A stretch of 8,598 nt of DNA from a virus (Duplodnaviria; Heunggongvirae; Uroviricota; Caudoviricetes), in the IMG/VR virus record IMGVR_UViG_2671180828_000009; one strand, written 5' to 3'. The position numbers and the translations under genes are program-made. Position 1 is the stretch's first letter; the number at the start of each line of letters is the position of its first letter. The notes beneath the pieces were generated by a model. The model had not been told where the DNA came from, ran no database searches, and was given only the letters and a program-made list of their open reading frames with translations. This document shows positions 1 through 8,598 of this stretch, one piece after another.

Positions 1-51
1 CCATATGAAATCATAAGAAGAATCATGTTGATAATCATCACAACTTTTCAT
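1..51 (-). CDS. Tail fiber assembly chaperone, N-terminal fragment only (gene runs off the left edge)
   Basis: ATG at 51..49 on the minus strand, 5 nt after the H stop (TAA at 56..54), opens a frame (MKSCDDYQHDSSYDFIW...) that stays open to the window edge. Position matches P2 gene G downstream of H. AT-rich like the H 3' end. Only 17 codons visible. Confidence 0.35.
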   Translation of the reverse strand, partial: MKSCDDYQHDSSYDFIW

Positions 52-53
52 AT

Positions 54-1493
54 TTAATATCCAAATGCAATAAATACAGCGCCTGAAACTTTTGAATCAC
101 TGCTGGTTCCTGATGTCAAACAAGTTACAGCAGTAAACCCATCATTATATATACTTTCGCACGACGTAACGACTTGTGCATATGTCATTTTTGTGACAAA
201 CACACCCCATACTCCGTTAGGGAATGGCGTTGGATATGTAATAGGAAGCTGTTGTGGAATACCAATAGTTGTACTATTAGGAAGATTTCTTCGAAATATT
301 TGTATAATTAAACCATTCGGACCTTTAACCAACAAATTATCGCTTCCTTTTCCTGTTAGCTGAAAATAGCTCATGTCAGGGATTTCATAACTATTAGCAT
401 TACCAACATTTCTACCTGCCGCATTTCCCAAATGCCCTAAACCAAGATAAGTAAGAATTCCTTCTATATCCTTTCCACTCAAATTAGTCAGCGTATTATC
501 CAGCGGTTGTTTGCCTGCCAGCGCATTAAGCATTGTCGTGGCAAAGTTCGGGTCATTCCCCAGCGCCGCCGCCAGTTCGTTCAGTGTATCCAGTGCCGCA
601 GGTGCAGACCCCACCATTGCTGCAATTGCCGATTTCACAAAAGCTGTAGTGGCAATCTGTGTATTGTTGACCGACTGCGCCGCCGTGGGGGCTGTTGGCG
701 TTCCGGTGAGTGCCGGACTCGACAACGGTGCTTTTAGTGCCAGCACATTGTTAATGGTGGTACTGAAATTCGGATCATTGTTAATGGCTGCGGCTATTTC
801 TTTCAGCGTGTCCAGCGTGGCTGGCGCACCATTAATAAGGGCCGTCAGTGCCGCCTGAACAAACGCAGTGGTCGCAACCTGCGTGGTATTATTCCCCGCC
901 GCTGGCGTTGGCGCTTTGGGGGTTCCGGTAAACGTCGGACTTTCTTTGGGTGCATACTGTGAATGTGGGTCCTGTGCGGCAAGGTGTTTTGCCATCAGGT
1001 CATCCACATACACCTTCAGCTCCAGTACCTTGTCATCCACATACTTGCGGGTTGCCAGCACTACAGCAGGATCGATTTTCAGGGTGATATTTTCCGTGCT
1101 GCTGGTAATCAGCACCATGCGCACGGTCTGGGTGCGCCCGCTGCCTTCAGCCAGTTGCGGCTTATAGCTTTCCGGGCAGTTGCCCACGGCAATCAATGCC
1201 CCGGACTCATCAAACAGGCCCACTTCACGTATCCACCAACCTCCCTCGTTTTCAGGGATCACCTGTTCGGCAATAATCTGGCTGCTGTTCTGCGGGTCGA
1301 TATAGAGCATATTCAGCGCAGCCCGGCGTTTCTCATTTACCAGTGCCGTCTGCTTTGCGTCCGGCGTTGGCAATGTTCCGCCGCCATCGCCGACCGCCAT
1401 ATGGGTAATTTTTAAAGGCACACCGAGCGCGGCGGCGCTGGCAAGTTTCGCCGCGCCAATATCCGTCAGCAGGGTATAAAATTTTGTGCTCAT
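54..1493 (-). CDS. H: Tail fiber protein (P2 gpH-like), 479 aa, with a divergent C-terminal receptor-binding region
   Basis: N-terminus MSTKFYTLLTDIGAAKLASAAALGVPLKITHMAVGDGGG... resembles the recalled P2 gpH N-terminal domain. Internal motif ...NNTQIATTAFV...ALDTLNELAAALGNDPNFATTM.NALAGKQP is the conserved tail-fibre repeat seen in P2 H and lambda Stf. Position immediately after I in the late operon. Confidence 0.9.
   Translation of the reverse strand: MSTKFYTLLTDIGAAKLASAAALGVPLKITHMAVGDGGGTLPTPDAKQTALVNEKRRAALNMLYIDPQNSSQIIAEQVIPENEGGWWIREVGLFDESGALIAVGNCPESYKPQLAEGSGRTQTVRMVLITSSTENITLKIDPAVVLATRKYVDDKVLELKVYVDDLMAKHLAAQDPHSQYAPKESPTFTGTPKAPTPAAGNNTTQVATTAFVQAALTALINGAPATLDTLKEIAAAINNDPNFSTTINNVLALKAPLSSPALTGTPTAPTAAQSVNNTQIATTAFVKSAIAAMVGSAPAALDTLNELAAALGNDPNFATTMLNALAGKQPLDNTLTNLSGKDIEGILTYLGLGHLGNAAGRNVGNANSYEIPDMSYFQLTGKGSDNLLVKGPNGLIIQIFRRNLPNSTTIGIPQQLPITYPTPFPNGVWGVFVTKMTYAQVVTSCESIYNDGFTAVTCLTSGTSSDSKVSGAVFIAFGY
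501..941 (-). repeat. Two tandem copies of a ~73-codon tail-fibre repeat inside H (about nt 723..941 and 501..719)
   Basis: Residues 185-257 (SPTFTGTPKAPTPAAGNNTTQVATTAFVQAALTALINGAPATLDTLKEIAAAINNDPNFSTTINNVLALKAPL) and 259-331 (SPALTGTPTAPTAAQSVNNTQIATTAFVKSAIAAMVGSAPAALDTLNELAAALGNDPNFATTMLNALAGKQPL) align along their length with roughly 60% identity. Also visible as paired antisense ORF segments. Confidence 0.7.
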
Positions 1494-2095
1494 GGATTCA
1501 CTCTCATTGTGTCAATAACATGGACCGCCCCGCCTTCATGCGCGGTGCCGCCGGAAATAATTGTTTCGTTGATATACGGATAGATCGTGATTTCTTCACC
1601 AAGATAGCTGGCGGCTCCCACCCAATGCGGGCCGCTGGTCTGCAGATTGATGGACATGCCGATCATGTGACGGCTACATGGTTTGGCATCGCTTATCAGC
1701 CGCTCAAGCTCCAGATAGGTATCTTCAGTGATGCCCTGGTCCTGCACACCAATGTCCAGGCGAAACGTACCCGGTGTTTCTCCGGTCTGCCACCACTCAA
1801 TAATGCGGATCAGGAAGCCGAACGGCTCCACCACCCGCCGCACGGCACTGGTGGTTCCTTTATGCTGATGAATATAAAAAGCATCCTTCACCACCTGTCG
1901 TTTGACGCTTTCCGTCCAGCCCTCGTCCCAGCAATCCACAGAGAACGCCCAGGCGAGATAAGGCAGGAAACTGATCGGACAGGTCGTTGGATTCCACAAG
2001 TCACGCAGCGGCACCTGCAGATCAGAAATCCCGCTGCAGGTTTGCGCCAGTCGGCGCTCCAGTGGCGTTGAACCCGGTGGCAGCAGACTATTCAT
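1490..2095 (-). CDS. I: Baseplate assembly protein I (P2 gpI-like), 201 aa
   Basis: Motifs LPPGSTPLE, LWNPTTCP, LPYLAWAFSVDCWDEGW, GTFRLDIGV are characteristic of P2 gpI-family proteins. 4-nt ATGA overlap with the H start. Position between J and H. Confidence 0.85.
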   Translation of the reverse strand: MNSLLPPGSTPLERRLAQTCSGISDLQVPLRDLWNPTTCPISFLPYLAWAFSVDCWDEGWTESVKRQVVKDAFYIHQHKGTTSAVRRVVEPFGFLIRIIEWWQTGETPGTFRLDIGVQDQGITEDTYLELERLISDAKPCSRHMIGMSINLQTSGPHWVGAASYLGEEITIYPYINETIISGGTAHEGGAVHVIDTMRVNP

Positions 2096-2996
2096 CCGTT
2101 CCTCCGTTGGTTACGCTCCACTGCGTACATGATGCCGCCTGTGTTTTGTTCAGGACCACATCCGCCAGAGGAGAAGCCAGCTCCACACGCTGCACACCCT
2201 CAACATGCAGGGCGGCAAAGATGGCGCTACGGCGAATATCCCGACCAAGACGCGTCTGACTGGCGATGTACTTCTGCAGGCTGGCTTTTGCCGCTGCCAT
2301 TACCGGCTCTGCTTCCGGTCCCGGATAGAGAAAAATGGTGGCTTCCACGCGATACGGGATGATTTCTGCGCTGCGAACCGTCAGACGGTCAGCCACCGGG
2401 CGGACGTTCTCACTGTTCAGAGCTTTTTCCACCACGTCCAGCAGGTCTTTTTCTGCAGTTCCATCGCCTTCGCGGCTAAGGACAGTCAGCACCACCTCTG
2501 CAGGTGCCGGGCTGGTTGCACTGGCATCCGCCACCCGACCGTCGGCGCTTCGGGCATGAAATTCATAAGCTGCAGTTGGCCCCGCAACTGAAAGCCCTTC
2601 AAAGGCTGCAGGCACACGCAGGCGTAACGATTCATCGCTTTCCATCACAGCTGCAACGGGCGGCACAGCGTCATTATCAGCAGGCGTCACCGTCAGGCGT
2701 TTCACGTTGTAGTTGGCAGCGATTTGGTCCAGATCGCCGCCCATCGCATAAGCCACCATCACCGCCTGCGCGGCTTCGTTAATGCGCTGGCGCAGAAGCA
2801 ACTCACGGTAAGCGTTCTCCTGCAACAATTTGGTGACGGGTTCAGATTCCAGTTCCAGCGTGCGGATCACTGCTTCCTGCTCATCTTTCGGATGAAGCGC
2901 CACAAATTCGGCCTTGCGTTCGGCAAGCAGCGTCTCAAAGTCCGGCACATCCACAATCTGCGGCGCAGGCAACTGCGAAAGGTCAATCACTGCCAT
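2088..2996 (-). CDS. J: Baseplate assembly protein J (P2 gpJ-like), about 302 aa
   Basis: The ORF track opens at 3035, but the likely start is the ATG at 2996 (MAVIDLSQLPAPQIV...), giving the expected gpJ length. Position between W and I. Overlaps the W 3' end by 14 nt and the I start by 8 nt. Confidence 0.85.
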   Translation of the reverse strand: MAVIDLSQLPAPQIVDVPDFETLLAERKAEFVALHPKDEQEAVIRTLELESEPVTKLLQENAYRELLLRQRINEAAQAVMVAYAMGGDLDQIAANYNVKRLTVTPADNDAVPPVAAVMESDESLRLRVPAAFEGLSVAGPTAAYEFHARSADGRVADASATSPAPAEVVLTVLSREGDGTAEKDLLDVVEKALNSENVRPVADRLTVRSAEIIPYRVEATIFLYPGPEAEPVMAAAKASLQKYIASQTRLGRDIRRSAIFAALHVEGVQRVELASPLADVVLNKTQAASCTQWSVTNGGTDE

Positions 2997-3342
2997 TCTC
3001 TGCTCCTGTTGATACGGAAAGGGAAACAGGCACACCGCTATTACGCCGCCCGGTCAGCTCCACCACCATTGAACCGTCAAAATTACTGTTGATGGTGATG
3101 GAATCCAGCGTCAGCCGTGGCTCCCAGCGACTCAGCGCCACATACACTGCCGACATGACCTGCAGGCGTAACGCCGGATTTTGTGGCTGGTCTATCAGTG
3201 CCGACAGCAGGGAACCATATTCCCGGCGAGCAATGCGGCTACCCTGCGGCGTCAGCAAAATGTCCCGCACCGACTGGCGCAGATGGTCAATATCAGTAAT
3301 GGCTTTACCGCTGATATTGTTCATCCCGCTATAAAGCGTCAT
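2983..3342 (-). CDS. W: Baseplate wedge protein W (gp25-like), 119 aa
   Basis: Size and sequence (MTLYSGMN..., ...REYGSLL..IDQPQNPALRLQ...WEPR...) are consistent with P2 gpW. Start ATG overlaps the upstream stop as ATGA. Confidence 0.85.
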   Translation of the reverse strand: MTLYSGMNNISGKAITDIDHLRQSVRDILLTPQGSRIARREYGSLLSALIDQPQNPALRLQVMSAVYVALSRWEPRLTLDSITINSNFDGSMVVELTGRRNSGVPVSLSVSTGAENGSD

Positions 3343-3938
3343 ACCGGGCCTCCGGTTGTATCGCCGCCTTTCAGGACGCCAGTATGCTGATGCGCATCAA
3401 CCACGATCCCGTTAGAACTCATAGCTCCGCCGCCCTGGGTAAGGCACCAGGCCATCTCCCGCGCACGGCGGTTATCCAGCCCCTGATTAAAAACACCTTT
3501 CACATAAACCCAGCGCGGCAACTGTCGGCACGCATCCGCCCAGCGCCGCTGATTGAGCAATTTCACCAGCGTGGAGCTGCAGGCATTGCCTGTCCCCACG
3601 TTGAAGGCAAATGACACCACCGCGTCATACACTTTCTGCGGCGGCTGTTGCTTCACACACCTTTCCAGCGCCCGCTCCACACGCAGCACGTTGGAGATCA
3701 GCCCTTCCGCTGCCTGTCGTTCCGTAATGGTTTTGCCTGGAATGACACCAGATGTATTACCAATGCCGTCTGTCCAGACACCCGCGCTGCACTGATACGG
3801 CTGCAGACGACAGCCTTCGTAATCGGCAATCAGTTTCAGCCCCTCCACGGAGGTGTGAAGCTGCTGAAAACCCGGCAGCGTGGCAGCAATAGCCAGCACG
3901 GCTCCGACAAGGCAGCGTTTAACGATTGATGGATTCAT
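3339..3938 (-). CDS. SAR endolysin, T4-lysozyme (GH24) family, P1 Lyz-like, with a ~30 aa C-terminal extension
   Basis: Weakly hydrophobic Gly/Ala-rich N-terminus MNPSIVKRCLVGAVLAIAATLPG followed by ...YEGCRLQPYQCSAGVWTDGIGNT..., which closely matches the recalled P1 Lyz catalytic region (EGCRRDPYMCPAGVWTDGIGNT). Start chosen at the in-frame ATG 3938 because GGGAGGA sits immediately upstream; the ORF track opens at 3965. Confidence 0.8.
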   Translation of the reverse strand: MNPSIVKRCLVGAVLAIAATLPGFQQLHTSVEGLKLIADYEGCRLQPYQCSAGVWTDGIGNTSGVIPGKTITERQAAEGLISNVLRVERALERCVKQQPPQKVYDAVVSFAFNVGTGNACSSTLVKLLNQRRWADACRQLPRWVYVKGVFNQGLDNRRAREMAWCLTQGGGAMSSNGIVVDAHQHTGVLKGGDTTGGPV

Positions 3939-4134
3939 AGTCCTCCCGCGAGATCTGCCCGTCACGCAGAAGCTGGTAGGCTTTGTGTTTGTAGTACCAG
4001 TTGATAGCCAGCATCAGCACACCAATCATCAGGCCGCCCAGCGTTGAGGCATCCTTGATGGACAAATCGCCCAGCCAGGCCAGCACGACGGCGATGCAAT
4101 ACGTGATAAAGGCGCTGATTCGCTCAAGCGTCAT
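3919..4134 (-). CDS. Class II holin (possible pinholin), 71 aa
   Basis: Two predicted transmembrane helices (ISAFITYCIAVVLAWLG and LGGLMIGVLMLAINWYY) followed by a charged C-terminal tail. Sits immediately upstream of, and overlapping, the SAR endolysin gene. Confidence 0.6.
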   Translation of the reverse strand: MTLERISAFITYCIAVVLAWLGDLSIKDASTLGGLMIGVLMLAINWYYKHKAYQLLRDGQISREDYESINR

Positions 4135-4137
4135 AAT

Positions 4138-4341
4138 TCAGTCCCATAGCTGGACGGTCTGCACGGTGGTGGTTGTCGGTATGTCCGGCAGCTCCACCTG
4201 CAACCCGTGAGGTAAAAAGGGGCCGTATTCGGCAAGCCCCGGATTTGCCTTCAGTACCTGCTCCGTGACACCCTGCGTGCGCCCGTAATGACGCCAGCAA
4301 AGCGCGTCCACCGTGTCATACTGATGCGCACGCACTTTCAT
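4138..4341 (-). CDS. X: Tail protein X (P2 gpX-like), 67 aa
   Basis: MKVRAHQYDTVDALCWRHYGRTQGVTEQVLKANPGLAEYGPFLPHGLQVELPD closely resembles recalled P2 gpX. Exact expected size and position after L. Confidence 0.85.
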   Translation of the reverse strand: MKVRAHQYDTVDALCWRHYGRTQGVTEQVLKANPGLAEYGPFLPHGLQVELPDIPTTTTVQTVQLWD

Positions 4342-4805
4342 CAGATAAGCTCCACTGTGCAGTGCGGCGCATCCTGTACCCGGCTGATGGCCCAGCGGGC
4401 GTCACGCCACAAATCACCGCTGGCTTCTGCCAGTTCCTCGCCTCGCTTCACACCCGATGCCGTGGCGTCATAGTCCTGGTATCGTTCGTTGAGCATGGCG
4501 CGTGCCCAACAATAAACCGCGTTGAAATAGTGCTGAATGCGCTCACTTTTGCCGTCCAGCTGTTCCGCCGGGACTTCTGCCAGCGACACATACCCCAGCA
4601 TCTGCTGACGTCTGCGAAACTCATACAGCTCTGCGTTGACCTCCGAAATTGCCGACAGAGCAACCTGCTTTAAACGCGGCTGCGTCACCGTGCCGTCAGT
4701 GCGCATGACACTGCGAAACTCCGACAGGTCCACATCAGGCCAGAACGGCGTATTTCTGATGATTTCCGCCTGTTCCGGTGCCTGTTCTGGCGCAACAAAC
4801 TTCAT
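4341..4805 (-). CDS. L: Head completion/stabilisation protein L (P2 gpL-like), about 154 aa
   Basis: Start assigned to ATG 4805 (MKFVAPEQ...) preceded by AGGAGA; the ORF track opens further upstream at 4868 inside a GC-rich hairpin. Position immediately before X. Confidence 0.8.
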   Translation of the reverse strand: MKFVAPEQAPEQAEIIRNTPFWPDVDLSEFRSVMRTDGTVTQPRLKQVALSAISEVNAELYEFRRRQQMLGYVSLAEVPAEQLDGKSERIQHYFNAVYCWARAMLNERYQDYDATASGVKRGEELAEASGDLWRDARWAISRVQDAPHCTVELI

Positions 4806-4818
4806 GCTGCTTTCTCCT

Positions 4819-4880
4819 GAAATAAAGGGCGGTGGACGGGGTTTTGATGTGGCAGTGCCTTTCGCCACCCCGTGCCGCCC
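4819..4880 (-). terminator. Candidate intrinsic terminator or structured element between the N remnant and L
   Basis: GC-rich imperfect stem (gggcgg..acgggg at 4828-4842 pairing with ccccgt.ccgccc at 4868-4880, ~25-nt loop) followed on the transcribed strand by CTTTATTTC just upstream of the L ribosome-binding site. Confidence 0.3.
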
Positions 4881-4900
4881 GTGCGCGGGGGCACGTTCTG

Positions 4901-5614
4901 TCAGCGGCTGTCATTGCGCAGTCTGCGCTCCAGCTGCTGTTTGTCTTTTTTCACGCCACAGCGGGGATCGAGCTGTAACGCATGGTTGAGATGATTAAGG
5001 GCAGACGCCGGATTCCCGACTTTCACTGCGCCCGGTGTGGTTTCACCGCCCGTGGTGGTGCTGCCCATGACGTGATCCGGTGCATCCTCACGGATTTTCT
5101 GCAGCCAGCCTTTGTTCACATCCTGCAGCAGCGGGTTTTCGCTACGGTTGGAGGTTTTCGCACGCTTCACGCCGTTAAAGCCGATCATGATGCGGTCCAG
5201 TGCCTGACGTTTCACGATGGCGTTACGGATACGCACCTGGAAATCCTGAAACTTCGCCCACAGGTCCAGCTTCGCGTAGGTCAGCACCGTGTCAAAGTTG
5301 GTCTGCTCGCATTTGTATTCCACATCGACCATCAGCGTCGGATCGACAGGCTCACGCTCTTTCGCGGTGGTGTCAGTGGTTCCGGCAATGGTGCTGCCAA
5401 CACCCAGCCCCAGCAACTGACCAGACTGCTCAGTCACTGGCGTGACGTTAATCAGCGTCAGGAATGCGGCGGACTGCTGGATCTGGTCTTCCAGCGTCTG
5501 CTGTACAGACGGCTCCACGGTGAACTTGCTGGACAGTTCTTCAACTGCCACACCGTTCAGACGCGCCAGCTGCTGCAGGTAAGCGTTAAAAGCAAAGCGG
5601 GTATTCTTCTTCAT
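4901..5614 (-). pseudogene. N: Major capsid protein N, 3'-truncated (237 codons versus about 350 expected)
   Basis: N-terminal ~205 aa (MKKNTRFAFNAYL...KFTVEPSV...LDLWAKFQDFQVRIRNAIVKRQALDRIMIGFNGVKRA...) look like a P2 N-family capsid protein. It follows O as expected, but the ORF is about 120 codons short, has a basic non-capsid-like tail (KKDKQQLERRLRNDSR), and no M gene lies between it and L. Confidence 0.7.
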
Positions 5615-5630
5615 CAGGTTTTGTGCTCCA

Positions 5631-6464
5631 TCAGCAATTGGTCAGAGTGTCAGCGGGGGCGTTACCGCCTGTTGCACGCTGGCGGTAGTCCTGGCGGCTG
5701 TCTTCATGGCTCAGCTTGTCCACCAGTTCGTTAAAGGCGGTCAGCTGTGCCTGCAGGGCTGTCTCCAGCTCAGACAGGCGTTCTTCCTGTTCAGACAGGG
5801 ATTTTTCGGTGCGCGCACTCAGGTTTTGCTGCTCAGTGGCGACCAGCTCCACGGCCTTATGCACATCAGAGAACCGGGCATCGTCGGACTGCTCTTTTTT
5901 GGTAAACAGCGCCGTGACACGGGCAAACAGGGACGGCTTGTCCTCCTGGATTTCTTCCAGTTCGATCACTGTTTCCTCTGCGGCGGTAAAGAGATTGGCG
6001 GGATTCTGCTTGCGGTTTGCCAGTGGGTTATGGGCTGCACTGGCGCTGAATGTCAGCATTTCAGTGCCCAGACTGGCAGGGTCATCAGTGGCAGCCAGGC
6101 CGACCAGGTAGGCTTTGCCCGTATCAGCGAACTTCGGGCTGACTTCCATAGAGGTGAATAATTTCTGGCCTTTTTTCACCAGTTCCACCAGGGACTCCGT
6201 TGGCTCAACGTCGGCATACAGCGCCATCTTGCCTGCCAGCGGACCTTCCGTGATTTCTTCAGCAAACAGCGCCGTCACCTTGCCGTAGCGGTTAAAGGTG
6301 CTGTCCGGCAGATAAGACTTGATGTGCTCAAGGTTAATCAGCGCGGTATACACCGCCGGGTTGTAGCTGGCTGCCATCTGTTCCAGCCATTCTCGCTGGA
6401 TTTCGCGTCCGTCGGTGGTGGCACCTTCCACCCCGATGCGAAAACGCTTTGCTTTCACTGTCAT
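5631..6464 (-). CDS. O: Capsid scaffolding protein O (P2 gpO-like), 277 aa
   Basis: ...FRIGVEG..DGR...INLEH...YG.V..L.AE...; ...AYLVGLAATDDPASLGTE... and C-terminal ...ATGG....D.LTNC match recalled gpO. GGAG 8 nt upstream of the ATG. Divergent from P. Confidence 0.85.
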   Translation of the reverse strand: MTVKAKRFRIGVEGATTDGREIQREWLEQMAASYNPAVYTALINLEHIKSYLPDSTFNRYGKVTALFAEEITEGPLAGKMALYADVEPTESLVELVKKGQKLFTSMEVSPKFADTGKAYLVGLAATDDPASLGTEMLTFSASAAHNPLANRKQNPANLFTAAEETVIELEEIQEDKPSLFARVTALFTKKEQSDDARFSDVHKAVELVATEQQNLSARTEKSLSEQEERLSELETALQAQLTAFNELVDKLSHEDSRQDYRQRATGGNAPADTLTNC

Positions 6465-6542
6465 GAGCCGTGCTCCGTTAGAAAAAACTTACTGGAGCCT
6501 TATGGTTGCGGTGATGGGGGCAGTGAAACAATGCGCGGTATT

Positions 6543-6560
6543 TGTACCGACAACCACACA
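6543..6560. promoter_or_regulatory. TGT-N12-ACA dyad, candidate Ogr/Delta-type late-promoter activator site (most plausibly for the O operon)
   Basis: TGTaccgacaaccacACA at 6543..6560 in the 142-bp O/P divergent intergenic region. P2-family late promoters carry this dyad centred near -55. The spacing puts a minus-strand transcription start about 30 nt upstream of the O ATG. Confidence 0.4.
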
Positions 6561-6606
6561 AACCGCAGGCGGGGAAAGCCTTCATTCAAGGCTGTAGGTT
6601 TGTGCC

Positions 6607-7578
6607 ATGAACACCACACTGACACCCGCAGATCTCGATCCCCGTCGGCAGGCCATGCTGCTGTACTTTCAGGGATACCGCGTAGCCCGCATTGCTGAAA
6701 TGCTGGGCGAGAAAGTTGCAACCGTTCACAGCTGGAAAAAACGCGACAAGTGGGGTGACTATGGGCCGCTGGATCAGATGCAGCTCACCACCGCCGCACG
6801 CTACTGCCAGCTCATCATGAAGGAGCACAAAGAAGGGAAAGATTTCAAAGAGATTGACCTGCTGGCGCGCCAGTCTGAGCGCCACGCGCGGATCGGCAAG
6901 TTTAACAATGGCGGCAACGAATCCGACTTAAACCCTAACGTCGCCAACCGCAACAAAGGCCCACGCCGTCAGCCGGAAAAGAATGTTTTCACCGATGAGC
7001 AGATTGAGAAGCTGGAAGAAATCTTCCATTCCTCCATGTTCAACTACCAGCGCCACTGGTGGGAAGCCGGAAAAACCAACCGCATCCGCAACCTGCTGAA
7101 GTCACGCCAGATCGGCGCGACCTTTTACTTTGCCCGTGAAGCCCTGATTGACGCCCTGCTGACCGGACGTAACCAGATTTTCCTTTCCGCCAGCAAGGCA
7201 CAGGCCCACGTCTTTAAGCAGTACATCATCGACTTCGCCAAAGAAGTGGAGGTGGAGTTGAAAGGCGATCCGATGGTGCTTCCTAACGGGGCCACGCTTT
7301 ACTTCCTCGGCACCAATGCCCGCACTGCCCAGAGTTATCACGGCAACCTGTATCTGGATGAATATTTCTGGATACCGAAATTCCAGGAGCTGCGCAAAGT
7401 GGCTTCCGGTATGGCTATTCACAAGAAATGGCGACAAACCTATTTTTCCACGCCATCCAGCCTGACACACAGTGCTTATCCGTTCTGGTCCGGTGCGCTA
7501 TTCAACCGTGGGCGCAACAAAGCCGATACCGCACCTGCAGCAACACGCCCGATCTCTGCGGTTGCACTCATGACGTAA
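6607..7578 (+). pseudogene. P: Terminase large subunit P, truncated (323 codons versus about 590 expected)
   Basis: N-terminal region (...[17 protein letters not shown]...[10 protein letters not shown]..., ...[17 protein letters not shown]...) is consistent with the P2 gpP N-terminal and ATPase region. The frame ends in a non-terminase-like tail overlapping the convergent cII-like gene. No portal gene Q follows. Confidence 0.75.
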
Positions 7579-7868
7579 TGTGGCAGTTTCTCTTTTGCCA
7601 CCTCATTAATTGGTACGCATGGCAGGCAGTGAATCTGTGCCAGAAAACCATCTACCAACGTTGAATCTTCAGTCAGATCGGTAAGCAGCCAGATTTCTGG
7701 TGCGGTTAATAAATGAGGTTGAGCTGGGTTCAGCTTGTTCCGCAGAATCTGCACATTCATGCCCGCACGTTCTGCCAGTTGCACCAGATTGTGGCGCAGT
7801 GCGAATGCACGACAGGCTTCATCAAAATGTGGATGTTTGGAAACTTGGTAATCAAACATGGTTTTCAA
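7476..7868 (-). CDS. cII: Phage CII-like regulatory protein (186 CII / CP76 family), probably 3'-truncated
   Basis: [45 protein letters not shown]...[25 protein letters not shown] matches the recalled CP76/CII family N-terminal region. The real start may be M4 at 7859. 130 aa versus about 165-170 for family members. Confidence 0.65.
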
Positions 7869-7873
7869 CTCCG

Positions 7874-7915
7874 AACTTATCGCAAAATCGAACTCAGCGT
7901 CTTATTGCGAAAATA
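7874..7915. promoter_or_regulatory. Paired repeats in the apl-cII intergenic region
   Basis: CTTATCGCAAAAT (7875-7887) and CTTATTGCGAAAAT (7901-7914) form a direct repeat about 26 bp apart; they contain the inverted hexamers TCGCAA / TTGCGA. Confidence 0.25.
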
Positions 7916-7923
7916 GACGTCTA

Positions 7924-8127
7924 TTAAGCAGACAAAGCATCAACAGTCAGAGCAGCCAGGTTAATCATTACCTTTTCACGTTTTTTGTCTTTACGAAGAC
8001 GATGACGAGGTAGTCGGCCATCAGCCAACATGTCGTTAATCGTATCAATAGAAAGGCCAGTCAGTTCGCTATAACGTTCGATTGTGACATGTGGTGTATT
8101 CAGAGTAATTGAAATGTTAGGTGTCAT
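7924..8127 (-). CDS. Small helix-turn-helix DNA-binding protein, Apl/Cox-like excisionase-regulator, 67 aa
   Basis: ...[27 protein letters not shown]... is an excisionase-type HTH. First gene of the leftward operon, divergent from cI and upstream of cII, as apl is in 186. Confidence 0.5.
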
Positions 8128-8272
8128 AAGGCAACATTCCTTCTAGATATGGCTTGTGGCGAGCCGTTGTTTGTCGTGATTAGTAGTGAAGGCTCCAAAA
8201 GAACACTTCTGGTTCAACTTTAAGATCGCTTTTGGAATCTGTCAACGAATTTTGGATTTCTTTGGAGGACTT
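8128..8272. promoter_or_regulatory. Immunity switch region between the divergent apl-like and cI genes
   Basis: 145-bp intergenic region. Perfect 8-bp inverted repeat TCCAAAAG (8194-8201) / CTTTTGGA (8229-8236) with further TTTGGA copies at 8251 and 8261. GGAGG at 8264-8268 ahead of the cI GTG. No promoter hexamers could be placed confidently. Confidence 0.4.
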
Positions 8273-8598
8273 GTGGATTTCAATAGCGGCGGTAAGAAAG
8301 CCATAGAACGTTTAGTTGAAGCATATGGGTTCGGTACCCGTCAGGCTCTCTGTGATCATTTAGGTGTTTCTAAGAGCACCATGGCAACGCGCTATATGCG
8401 TGATATTTTTCCAGCAGATTGGGTAATCCAGTGCGCCCTTGAAACGGGCACCTCGCTTAATTGGCTAACAACAGGGCATGGTTCAAAGCAAGCATCAGCA
8501 AATACAAATACTATAGAAGTAGAAAAATATTTATTGTCTGATGGAGCATTGCAGAAAGACGGTTTTTATATTTTTGATAAGGGATTTCTACCCTCTAC
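8273..8598 (+). CDS. cI: CI-family repressor (186 CI-like N-terminal HTH domain), 5' part only
   Basis: Open frame from GTG 8273 to the window edge: VDFNSGGKKAIERLVEAYGFGTRQALCDHLGVSKSTMATRYMRDIFPADWVIQCALETGTSLNWLTTGHG..., matching the 186 CI-type HTH pattern. Not in the ORF track because it has a non-ATG start and no stop within the window. Confidence 0.7.
   Translation, partial: MDFNSGGKKAIERLVEAYGFGTRQALCDHLGVSKSTMATRYMRDIFPADWVIQCALETGTSLNWLTTGHGSKQASANTNTIEVEKYLLSDGALQKDGFYIFDKGFLPS

Follow-up and report, generated by a model that had tools for sequence, protein, structure and literature searches.

The window, by which we mean the whole stretch of 8,598 bp analyzed here, is a complete draft contig (CDQN01000172.1) and covers the center of a P2-family prophage remnant of approximately 14.7 kb that occupies the rcdA-ybjL interval of E. 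coli. The order of the full remnant is given by a longer contig (L003) as int-ydcA-cI-apl-cII'-P'-O-N::M-L-X-holin-lys::V-W-J-I-H-tfa-acyltransferase-FI-FII::D-ogr-ybjL. Every real gene in the window has a phage assignment by Pfam or PHROG, and the genes, regulatory regions, and deletion junctions are arranged as follows.

1 to 51, minus strand: tail-fiber assembly gene, first 17 codons (from the translation), running off the left contig end; L003 carries the full 158-aa Caudo_TAP gene.
54 to 1493, minus strand: H, gpH-like tail fiber of 479 aa, intact (PF12571, E=2e-65, and Gp53-like_C; 97% aa identity to CFT073).
1490 to 2095, minus strand: I, gpI-like baseplate protein, intact (PF09684, E=1e-53).
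2088 to 2996, minus strand: J, gpJ-like baseplate protein, intact (PF04865; gene call in L003 and L004).
2983 to 3342, minus strand: W, gpW/gp25-like baseplate wedge, intact (PF04965).
3339 to 3938, minus strand: lysozyme::gpV in-frame fusion, in which residues 1-166 of the 170-aa lysozyme precede the C-terminal 34 aa of gpV with the apex motif (PF00959 and PF18946; two CFT073 segments by tblastn).
3445 to 3449, no strand: junction of deletion D1, 2,329 bp missing, with the 5-bp microhomology CACCA.
3919 to 4134, minus strand: HP1-family holin, intact (PF16080).
4138 to 4341, minus strand: tail protein X, intact (PF05489).
4341 to 4805, minus strand: L, head completion protein gpL, intact (PF05926; phrog_71).
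4901 to 5614, minus strand: N::M in-frame fusion, joining residues 1 to about 200 of the major capsid protein gpN to the last 37 aa of the small terminase gpM (PF05125 positions 1-189 of 327; phrog_70 and phrog_74).
5013 to 5014, no strand: junction of deletion D2, about 1.0 kb (999-1,003 bp) missing, with 2-bp microhomology.
5631 to 6464, minus strand: O, capsid scaffold/protease gpO, intact (PF05929, E=5e-113).
6465 to 6606, no strand: divergent late-promoter region separating O from P; at 6543-6560 it has a TGT-N12-ACA dyad, the Ogr/B activator-site type, one of two such matches in the window, and its position fits the P2/186 annotation.
6607 to 7578, plus strand: P, large terminase gpP, truncated to residues 1-307 of 588 followed by 16 read-through codons (PF06056 and PF03237).
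7476 to 7859, minus strand: cII, truncated to about 113 of 169 residues, then reading through into antisense P (PF06892 positions 1-111 of 146; 73% aa identity to 186 CII).
7525 to 7528, no strand: junction of deletion D3, at which 9,582 bp of the CFT073 sequence are missing, with the microhomology GATA.
7924 to 8127, minus strand: Apl/Cox-like excisionase-repressor of 67 aa, intact (phrog_575, E=1e-29).
8128 to 8272, no strand: apl-cI lysogeny switch region, laid out as in the 186 annotation, with a pR-like promoter (TTGACA-17-TAAAGT, 8245 to 8217, minus strand) proposed from a consensus match only.
8273 to 8598, plus strand: cI, 186-type CI repressor, first 108 of 189 codons (PF07022, E=7.5e-32), running off the right contig end; complete in L003.

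This content agrees with the original prediction, made from the sequence of the window, that each sizeable ORF has a phage structural, lysis, or immunity function. The Pfam families GPO, Phage_cap_P2, GPL, Tail_X, GPW_gp25, Baseplate_J, Tail_P2_I, Phage_tail_fib, and Terminase_5/6N occur in the canonical late-gene order, with approximately 96-98% nucleotide identity to peduoviruses. Outside the window, the ends of the prophage in L003 encode a tyrosine integrase (int, PF00589) and an Ogr/Delta-type activator (ogr, PF04606 and NF007241, the latter scoring 98.5, under its 116-bit cut-off). The window very probably represents the middle of a P2-family (Peduoviridae) prophage that is decaying at the rcdA-ybjL site of an E. 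coli chromosome and is no longer viable. The remnant has N, M, P, and V only in truncated or fused form and lacks Q, A, R, S, T, U, and E; it is incapable of replication, DNA packaging, and particle assembly. An R-type tailocin can be rejected as well: the tube is joined to D, the genes T, U, E, R, and S are missing, V is down to its last 34 aa, and O and L, which are head genes, remain. The remnant could plausibly still confer immunity to homoimmune phages through CI and, by a gene outside the window, supply an acyltransferase of the O-antigen type; excision may also persist, since int and apl are intact.

The closest reference for the ancestral arrangement is the intact prophage of CFT073 (NC_004431.1, 909,332-942,273), which is complete at about 33 kb, occupies the same rcdA-ybjL site with the same gene order, and shares with the remnant about 96-98% nucleotide identity over the structural genes, the same tail-fiber tip, the same acyltransferase, and, at 97% aa identity, cII and apl. 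Its cI allele is a different one, of 289 aa against 189 aa in the window lineage and about 60% identical at the aa level, and the A-Q hotspot of CFT073 holds a TIGR02391/PD-Lambda-3-like gene. A second intact relative, the complete Klebsiella phage 4LV2017 (Elveevirus, Peduoviridae; NC_047818.1), has an identical late-gene order and 95.6-97.7% nucleotide identity over window positions 429-7528. It differs in its tail-fiber tip, leaving positions 1-428 unmatched, has no apl or cI match within the 22-kb stretch compared, and by annotation carries a retron in its A-Q hotspot.

By BLAST against 4LV2017 and the CFT073 prophage, we mapped three deletions in the window (2.3, 1.0, and 9.6 kb relative to CFT073), joined at microhomologies of 2-5 bp (1-5 bp over the deletion map as a whole), and a fourth of 4.4 kb outside it, which joins the tube gene to that of gpD (FII::D); the remnant is multiply deleted, as had been proposed. 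D1 removed most of V, together with S, R, lysC, lysB, a lysA-like gene, and the lysozyme end, and D2 removed the N-terminus of gpM and the C-terminus of gpN. D3 took the C-terminus of P, the portal gene Q, the A-Q cargo hotspot, DinI, A, dam, the early genes, fil, and the C-terminus of cII. The junctions show no insertion sequence ends and no repeats beyond short ones expected by chance, and the window contains no Chi site. The surviving genes are full length and show no frameshift or stop relative to CFT073.

The same three junctions recur at 100% identity in a 56.9-kb contig from SRR12495213, in GCA_000939695.1, and in ERR738832 and ERR738837. Among 5,426 complete E. coli genomes, none holds an exact copy of the whole window in one piece; only sister states occur there. 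Two sister remnants at the same site, LR-64-2 (NZ_AP027595.1) and E423 (NZ_CM173464.1), exceed 99.9% nucleotide identity in the shared parts and have an FII::D junction identical to that of the window lineage. In LR-64-2, the cII'/P' junction is displaced by 2 bp and 111 bp, and a single large deletion runs from O to J, out of frame. E423 retains its early region in full, along with DarTG and an AbiU-like gene and has lost everything from P to I.

The remnant had been called a P2/186 hybrid, and this label is apt only in a loose sense: a P2-type morphogenesis region is combined with a 186-type switch. The late-gene order is shared with coliphage P2 (Peduovirus; Q P / O N M L X Y K ... V W J I H G / FI FII E T U D ogr), whose accessory positions, A-Q and Z/fun, are the same as in the window lineage (PMC9122126). 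With coliphage 186 (Eganvirus), the window shares a cI gene with a Phage_CI_repr domain (PF07022) divergent from apl (phrog_575) and cII (PF06892), the last cut short here by D3. A strict mosaic of the two phages can, however, be rejected, as the structural proteins are moderately and about equally similar to both (41-66% identity overall; 41-66% for window proteins against P2 and 44-64% for structural proteins against 186), and no segment is close to either. Neither phage has a match to the holin or the lysozyme, and the P2 lysis genes belong to a different family; there is also no homolog of P2 C or Cox. Only the truncated CII approaches 186, at 73%, whereas the N-terminal part of CI is just 33% identical and Apl has no tblastn match to 186. 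P2-type morphogenesis and a 186-type CI/Apl/CII switch already occur together in intact relatives, the CFT073 prophage among them. The hybrid make-up is a property of the phage lineage and did not arise within this remnant.

The history that best accommodates these observations starts from an ancestor resembling the intact CFT073 prophage at rcdA-ybjL, whose head, tail, and lysis modules are of P2 type and whose CI/Apl/CII switch is of 186 type, with an acyltransferase at Z/fun and a defense hotspot at A-Q. Illegitimate, microhomology-mediated deletions very probably eroded it stepwise: the deletion from FII to D cost the tail core; D3 the portal, the terminase C-terminus, the replication genes, and the defense hotspot; D1 the baseplate spike, the tail completion proteins, and the spanins; and D2 the small terminase together with the greater part of the capsid gene. 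The sister strains bring the total to at least eight deletions within one clone, in which shared DNA is less than 0.1% different. That LR-64-2 and E423 have FII::D in common despite their other deletion sets indicates stepwise decay within this clone. Exact-protein counts fit such an order too, with FII::D on 130 contigs and N::M, lys::V, and P' on only four to six. We propose that FII::D (D0) came first, followed by a Q/P deletion, by a deletion from cII to that junction through a CGGT(T)ATC microhomology, and lastly by D1 and D2.

One feature speaks against neutral decay: all three same-strand deletions of the window lineage are in-frame fusions, an outcome with a chance of about 1 in 27. 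Together with the intact ORFs, this could hint at selection over pure decay. On this basis, and given at least eight independent internal deletions in the clone, the prophage could have been actively purged or reshaped by selection and not simply have drifted, which we consider unlikely. In one such scenario, losing the tail core as the first step would have left a prophage that was still inducible, lethal but sterile; survivors would be enriched for deletions of replication, packaging, and lysis functions, and in-frame joins might have been favored by avoiding polarity or toxic truncated products. However, two further same-strand deletions in the sister strains are out of frame, so that in-frame joins number three of five and do not amount to significant evidence of selection. 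The strains hardly diverge at all, moreover, which implies that the deletions are very recent, and intact ORFs are then to be expected.

We regard it as highly unlikely that selection has instead kept the remnant as a domesticated element, with the in-frame fusions serving to keep translation continuous along the O operon; the holin-lysozyme, baseplate, tail-fiber, and perhaps tail-fiber assembly genes would in that case still be expressed from the Ogr-dependent late promoter to the benefit of the host. Such a role would suit the in-frame joins and undamaged reading frames described above, the complete catalytic domain of the lysozyme (PF00959 positions 2-125 of 125), the intact holin, the retention of ogr, and the intact O/P promoter region with its TGT-N12-ACA dyad. 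Against it, the three-of-five count gives a binomial p of about 0.2, remnants of the window type are few, on 4-11 contigs, whereas the ancestral FII::D state is on 130, and the genes expected to be conserved are deleted in the sisters, from O to J in LR-64-2 and from P to I in E423. All copies of the remnant are also 100% identical, and hence no signal of purifying selection can be read from them.

Returning to stepwise decay as the preferred account, we found nothing in the window that would set this remnant apart. PADLOC returned nothing credible for all 99 window ORFs of at least 30 aa, the one match (mad1, E=0.006) being at chance level among 99 queries, and was negative for the flanking remnant genes, while in E423, the positive control, it detected DarT, DarG, and AbiU. 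Pfam searches of the same 99 ORFs returned phage families only, and neither Rfam (E<=1) nor ARAGORN reported a noncoding RNA or a tRNA in the window. No window ORF thus has a credible defense or toxin profile match, in line with the original prediction that no stand-alone system of either kind is present; the profile searches that it had proposed assign no non-phage function to any ORF.

Both accessory positions are accounted for as it had foreseen. The one between the replication gene and Q lies within D3, which extends from the C-terminal part of P to that of cII, and it is here that the near-identical E423 remnant retains DarT/DarG and an AbiU-like AIPR gene. The Z/fun position, after the tail-fiber assembly gene, lies about 1 kb left of the window and is occupied in L003 by an acyltransferase gene (Acyl_transf_3). 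Extension in both directions along L003, also suggested in the original prediction, adds this acyltransferase on the left and the complete cI, ydcA, and int on the right, all negative by PADLOC. The window shows that informative cargo can sit just past the ends of a short draft contig, out of view.

There is a very slim chance that a small or unrecognized cargo gene is hidden in the window itself, for example as an unannotated small ORF within the switch region or at one of the junctions, given that several ORFs of 20-250 aa that overlap genes or junctions have no family assignment (e.g., 4982-5734 and 7858-8013, both on the plus strand). All of these are, however, antisense to or overlapping well-supported phage genes, lie in DNA of 55-60% GC, where spurious ORFs are frequent, and lack any Pfam or PADLOC match. 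Outside the junctions, the sequence is collinear with intact phages and hence contains no inserted DNA, and the intergenic stretches at 6465-6606, 7869-7923, and 8128-8272 are the usual late-promoter and switch regions.

That the deletions are artefacts of a chimeric or collapsed contig from an intact prophage has next to no probability: the source assembly is a fragmented draft in which the window forms one whole short contig and positions 1382-6997 are duplicated on a second, but the three junctions, being 100% identical in independent assemblies and read sets, are not misassemblies, and related junctions occur in two finished chromosomes.

Of this explanation, the map of deletions, the set of genes, and the lack of defense or toxin genes are the established parts. 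Because the window contains only phage structural, lysis, and immunity genes, without a defense or toxin gene, it represents prophage decay of an ordinary kind. Taken alone, it is of little importance beyond a clean negative, the contig holding no defense or toxin candidate, but it provides a worked example of the rapid erosion of a P2-like prophage within one E. coli clone. Whether defective P2 elements stabilize defense genes is a published question (PMC13586616), on which the contrast between the two remnants bears: the window sub-lineage lost the A-Q defense hotspot, whereas E423 kept DarTG and the AbiU-like gene and lost structural genes.

The window corresponds end to end to the whole draft contig CDQN01000172.1 (assembly GCA_000938575.1), read on the reverse strand, and recurs at 100% identity in the interior of L003, a 56.9-kb contig from SRR12495213, and on contigs from three further samples. 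The names attached to identical proteins suggest Escherichia coli as the host, and so do the near-identical finished genomes. A second contig of the source assembly (CDQN01000811.1, 5.6 kb) matches window 1382-6997 at 100% identity; this points either to redundancy or fragmentation in the assembly, which runs to more than 800 contigs, or to a duplication of the element.

A six-frame ORF listing with Pfam and PHROG assignments shows a 186-type switch joined to a continuous late region of the P2 family, arranged from left to right as follows:

Left end: tail-fibre assembly gene, beginning only
Next: H, I, J and W
3339-3938: lysozyme fused to the gpV apex
Next: HP1-type holin, intact
Next: X and L
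4901-5614: gpN::gpM fusion
Next: O
Between O and P: divergent late-promoter region
Next: large terminase P, truncated
Next: cII, truncated, convergent with P
Between cII and cI: Apl/Cox-like gene
Right end: 186-type CI, N-terminal 108 codons

Nothing remarkable emerged among ORFs of at least 20 aa at the junctions and between genes, all of them short and overlapping. Window 1-434, comprising the tail-fibre tip and the beginning of the assembly gene, has a low GC content (35-40%, versus about 56% elsewhere) and matches CFT073-type prophages but not Klebsiella phage 4LV2017, as expected if this segment is an exchangeable receptor-binding module.

Apart from three breaks, the window is collinear with 4LV2017 (NC_047818.1) and with the intact CFT073 prophage (NC_004431.1 909,332-942,273), at about 96-98% identity. 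These breaks map three deletions:

D1: junction 3445-3449; 2,329 bp lost; microhomology CACCA; removes most of V, together with S, R, lysC, lysB, a lysA-like gene and the last 4 lysozyme codons
D2: junction 5013-5014; ~1.0 kb lost; microhomology of 2 bp; removes the N-terminal 5/6 of gpM and the C-terminal 2/5 of gpN
D3: junction 7525-7528; 9,582 bp lost relative to CFT073; microhomology GATA; removes the P C-terminus, portal Q, the A-Q accessory locus, DinI, A, dam, small early genes, fil and the cII C-terminus

Both D1 and D2 leave in-frame fusion ORFs. The original prediction of a multiply deleted P2/186 hybrid remnant is correct as to the remnant and its deletions, and only loosely so as to the hybrid. 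Proteins of the window are 41-66% identical to those of both P2 and 186, only cII comes near 186 (73% identity), and the holin and lysozyme have a match in neither phage. The same modules are already combined in intact relatives such as the CFT073 prophage. We rejected a strict P2 x 186 mosaic, identity to both phages being equal and moderate; the element is best regarded as a peduovirus of the CFT073-prophage/Elveevirus-like kind that has a 186-type switch.

Profile searches bear out the expectation that the window holds only phage structural, lysis, and immunity genes and no stand-alone defence or toxin gene. Pfam returned phage families alone for all 99 window ORFs of at least 30 aa, and the single PADLOC match to the same ORFs (E=0.006) is no better than expected by chance among 99 queries. 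No noncoding RNA or tRNA gene was found in the window (Rfam at E<=1; ARAGORN). The two accessory positions lie as predicted, with the one between the replication gene and Q deleted by D3 and the one after the tail-fibre assembly gene outside the window, and past cI, a 63-aa YdcA-family gene stands alone before int in L003. The window is an ordinary defective prophage, already annotatable, with no cargo inside.

The complete remnant in L003, with int at one end and ogr at the other, is about 14.7 kb long and lies between rcdA (ybjK) and ybjL, exactly the site occupied by the intact ~33-kb relative in CFT073. Outside the window, a further deletion of 4,387 bp (D0) takes out E, E', T, and U and fuses the tail tube gene FII in frame to gpD (L003:18451-19719). 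At the P2 Z/fun position, flanked by the tail-fibre assembly gene and FI (sheath), lies a 343-aa Acyl_transf_3 gene that is shared with the CFT073 prophage; it is on the opposite strand, at L003:16024-17055, about 1 kb beyond the left end of the window. It has no PADLOC or NCBIfam match, and none of the flanking remnant genes in L003 has a PADLOC match. This is probably a lysogenic-conversion gene of the O-antigen acetylation type, and its product may modify surface polysaccharide.

The remnant has no capacity for replication, packaging, or particle formation. Still intact are apl, int, ogr, the holin, and the catalytic domain of the lysozyme; cI is complete in L003, and the O/P control region keeps a TGT-N12-ACA dyad. 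CI could still make the host immune to homoimmune phages. The lysozyme N-terminus (window 3866-3938) carries a hydrophobic stretch, MNPSIVKRCLVGAVLAIAATLPGF, and adjoins the HP1-type holin, a pairing that could fit a putative signal-anchor-release endolysin and its pinholin.

The gpA-gpQ locus lost through D3 is a documented P2 defence hotspot (PMC9122126). Sister remnants occupy the same site in two finished E. coli chromosomes, E423 (NZ_CM173464.1; L013) and LR-64-2 (NZ_AP027595.1; L012), with >99.9% identity in shared DNA and an identical D0 junction. E423 has kept the whole early region and lost everything from P to I. Its hotspot (L013:11130-15127), with DinI on one side and a truncated portal gene on the other, contains DarT and DarG, an AbiU-like AIPR gene, and a fragment of IS5 (PADLOC E=2e-36, 2e-64, and 6e-25 for DarT, DarG, and the AIPR gene, respectively). 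Judging from this sister strain, DarTG/AbiU-type cargo was very probably lost by the window lineage via D3; the two are opposite outcomes of the decay of one prophage. In LR-64-2, the cII'/P' junction is offset from that of the window, by 2 bp in cII and 111 bp in P, and a single large O-to-J deletion is out of frame.

By exact-sequence counts, the FII::D fusion is present on 130 contigs, but only 4-6 contigs have the N::M, lys::V, or P' product. We infer that D0 is old and that D1-D3 arose recently and only in one sub-lineage. The P-side breakpoint of D3 falls within 1-3 bp of that at the E423 portal'|P' junction, with breakpoints clustering at window 7525-7528, L013:15677-15735, and L012:13705-13715 (E423 junction, CCGGTTATCGGCTTTG; cII site, GCGGTATCTGG; window D3 junction, GCGGTATCGGCTTTG). 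This clustering can be explained by serial deletions reusing a CGGT(T)ATC microhomology made by an earlier junction. The simplest history would start with D0 and then a 1.3-kb Q/P deletion, followed by deletion between cII and the new Q/P junction through this microhomology; later steps would be D1 and D2 on the branch leading to the window and, in LR-64-2, the O-to-J and 111-bp deletions. This adds up to at least eight deletions within one clone, across which shared DNA differs by about 0.01-0.07%. In the window lineage, each of the three same-strand deletions (D0, D1, and D2) curiously yields an in-frame fusion (p about 0.04), but two same-strand deletions in the sister strains are out of frame, and the overall tally (3/5, p about 0.2) is therefore not significant.

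A different E. coli lineage, EC556 (NZ_AP027440.1), also has a P2-like remnant at rcdA-ybjL, eroded independently and in a different way, so such decay is commonplace at this site. In that remnant, a truncated A abuts S, V is separated from S by an FRG-domain gene, I has a frameshift, tube'-E'-D' fragments are left, and a different acyltransferase occupies the Z/fun position. A related prophage in E. coli CE10 (NC_017646.1), located elsewhere in the chromosome near marC/ydeA, shares its cI/apl/cII' immunity region with the window; an IS3 element separates its portal gene from the truncated cII, and ISEc53 and a ClbS/DfsB-family gene lie between cI and int.
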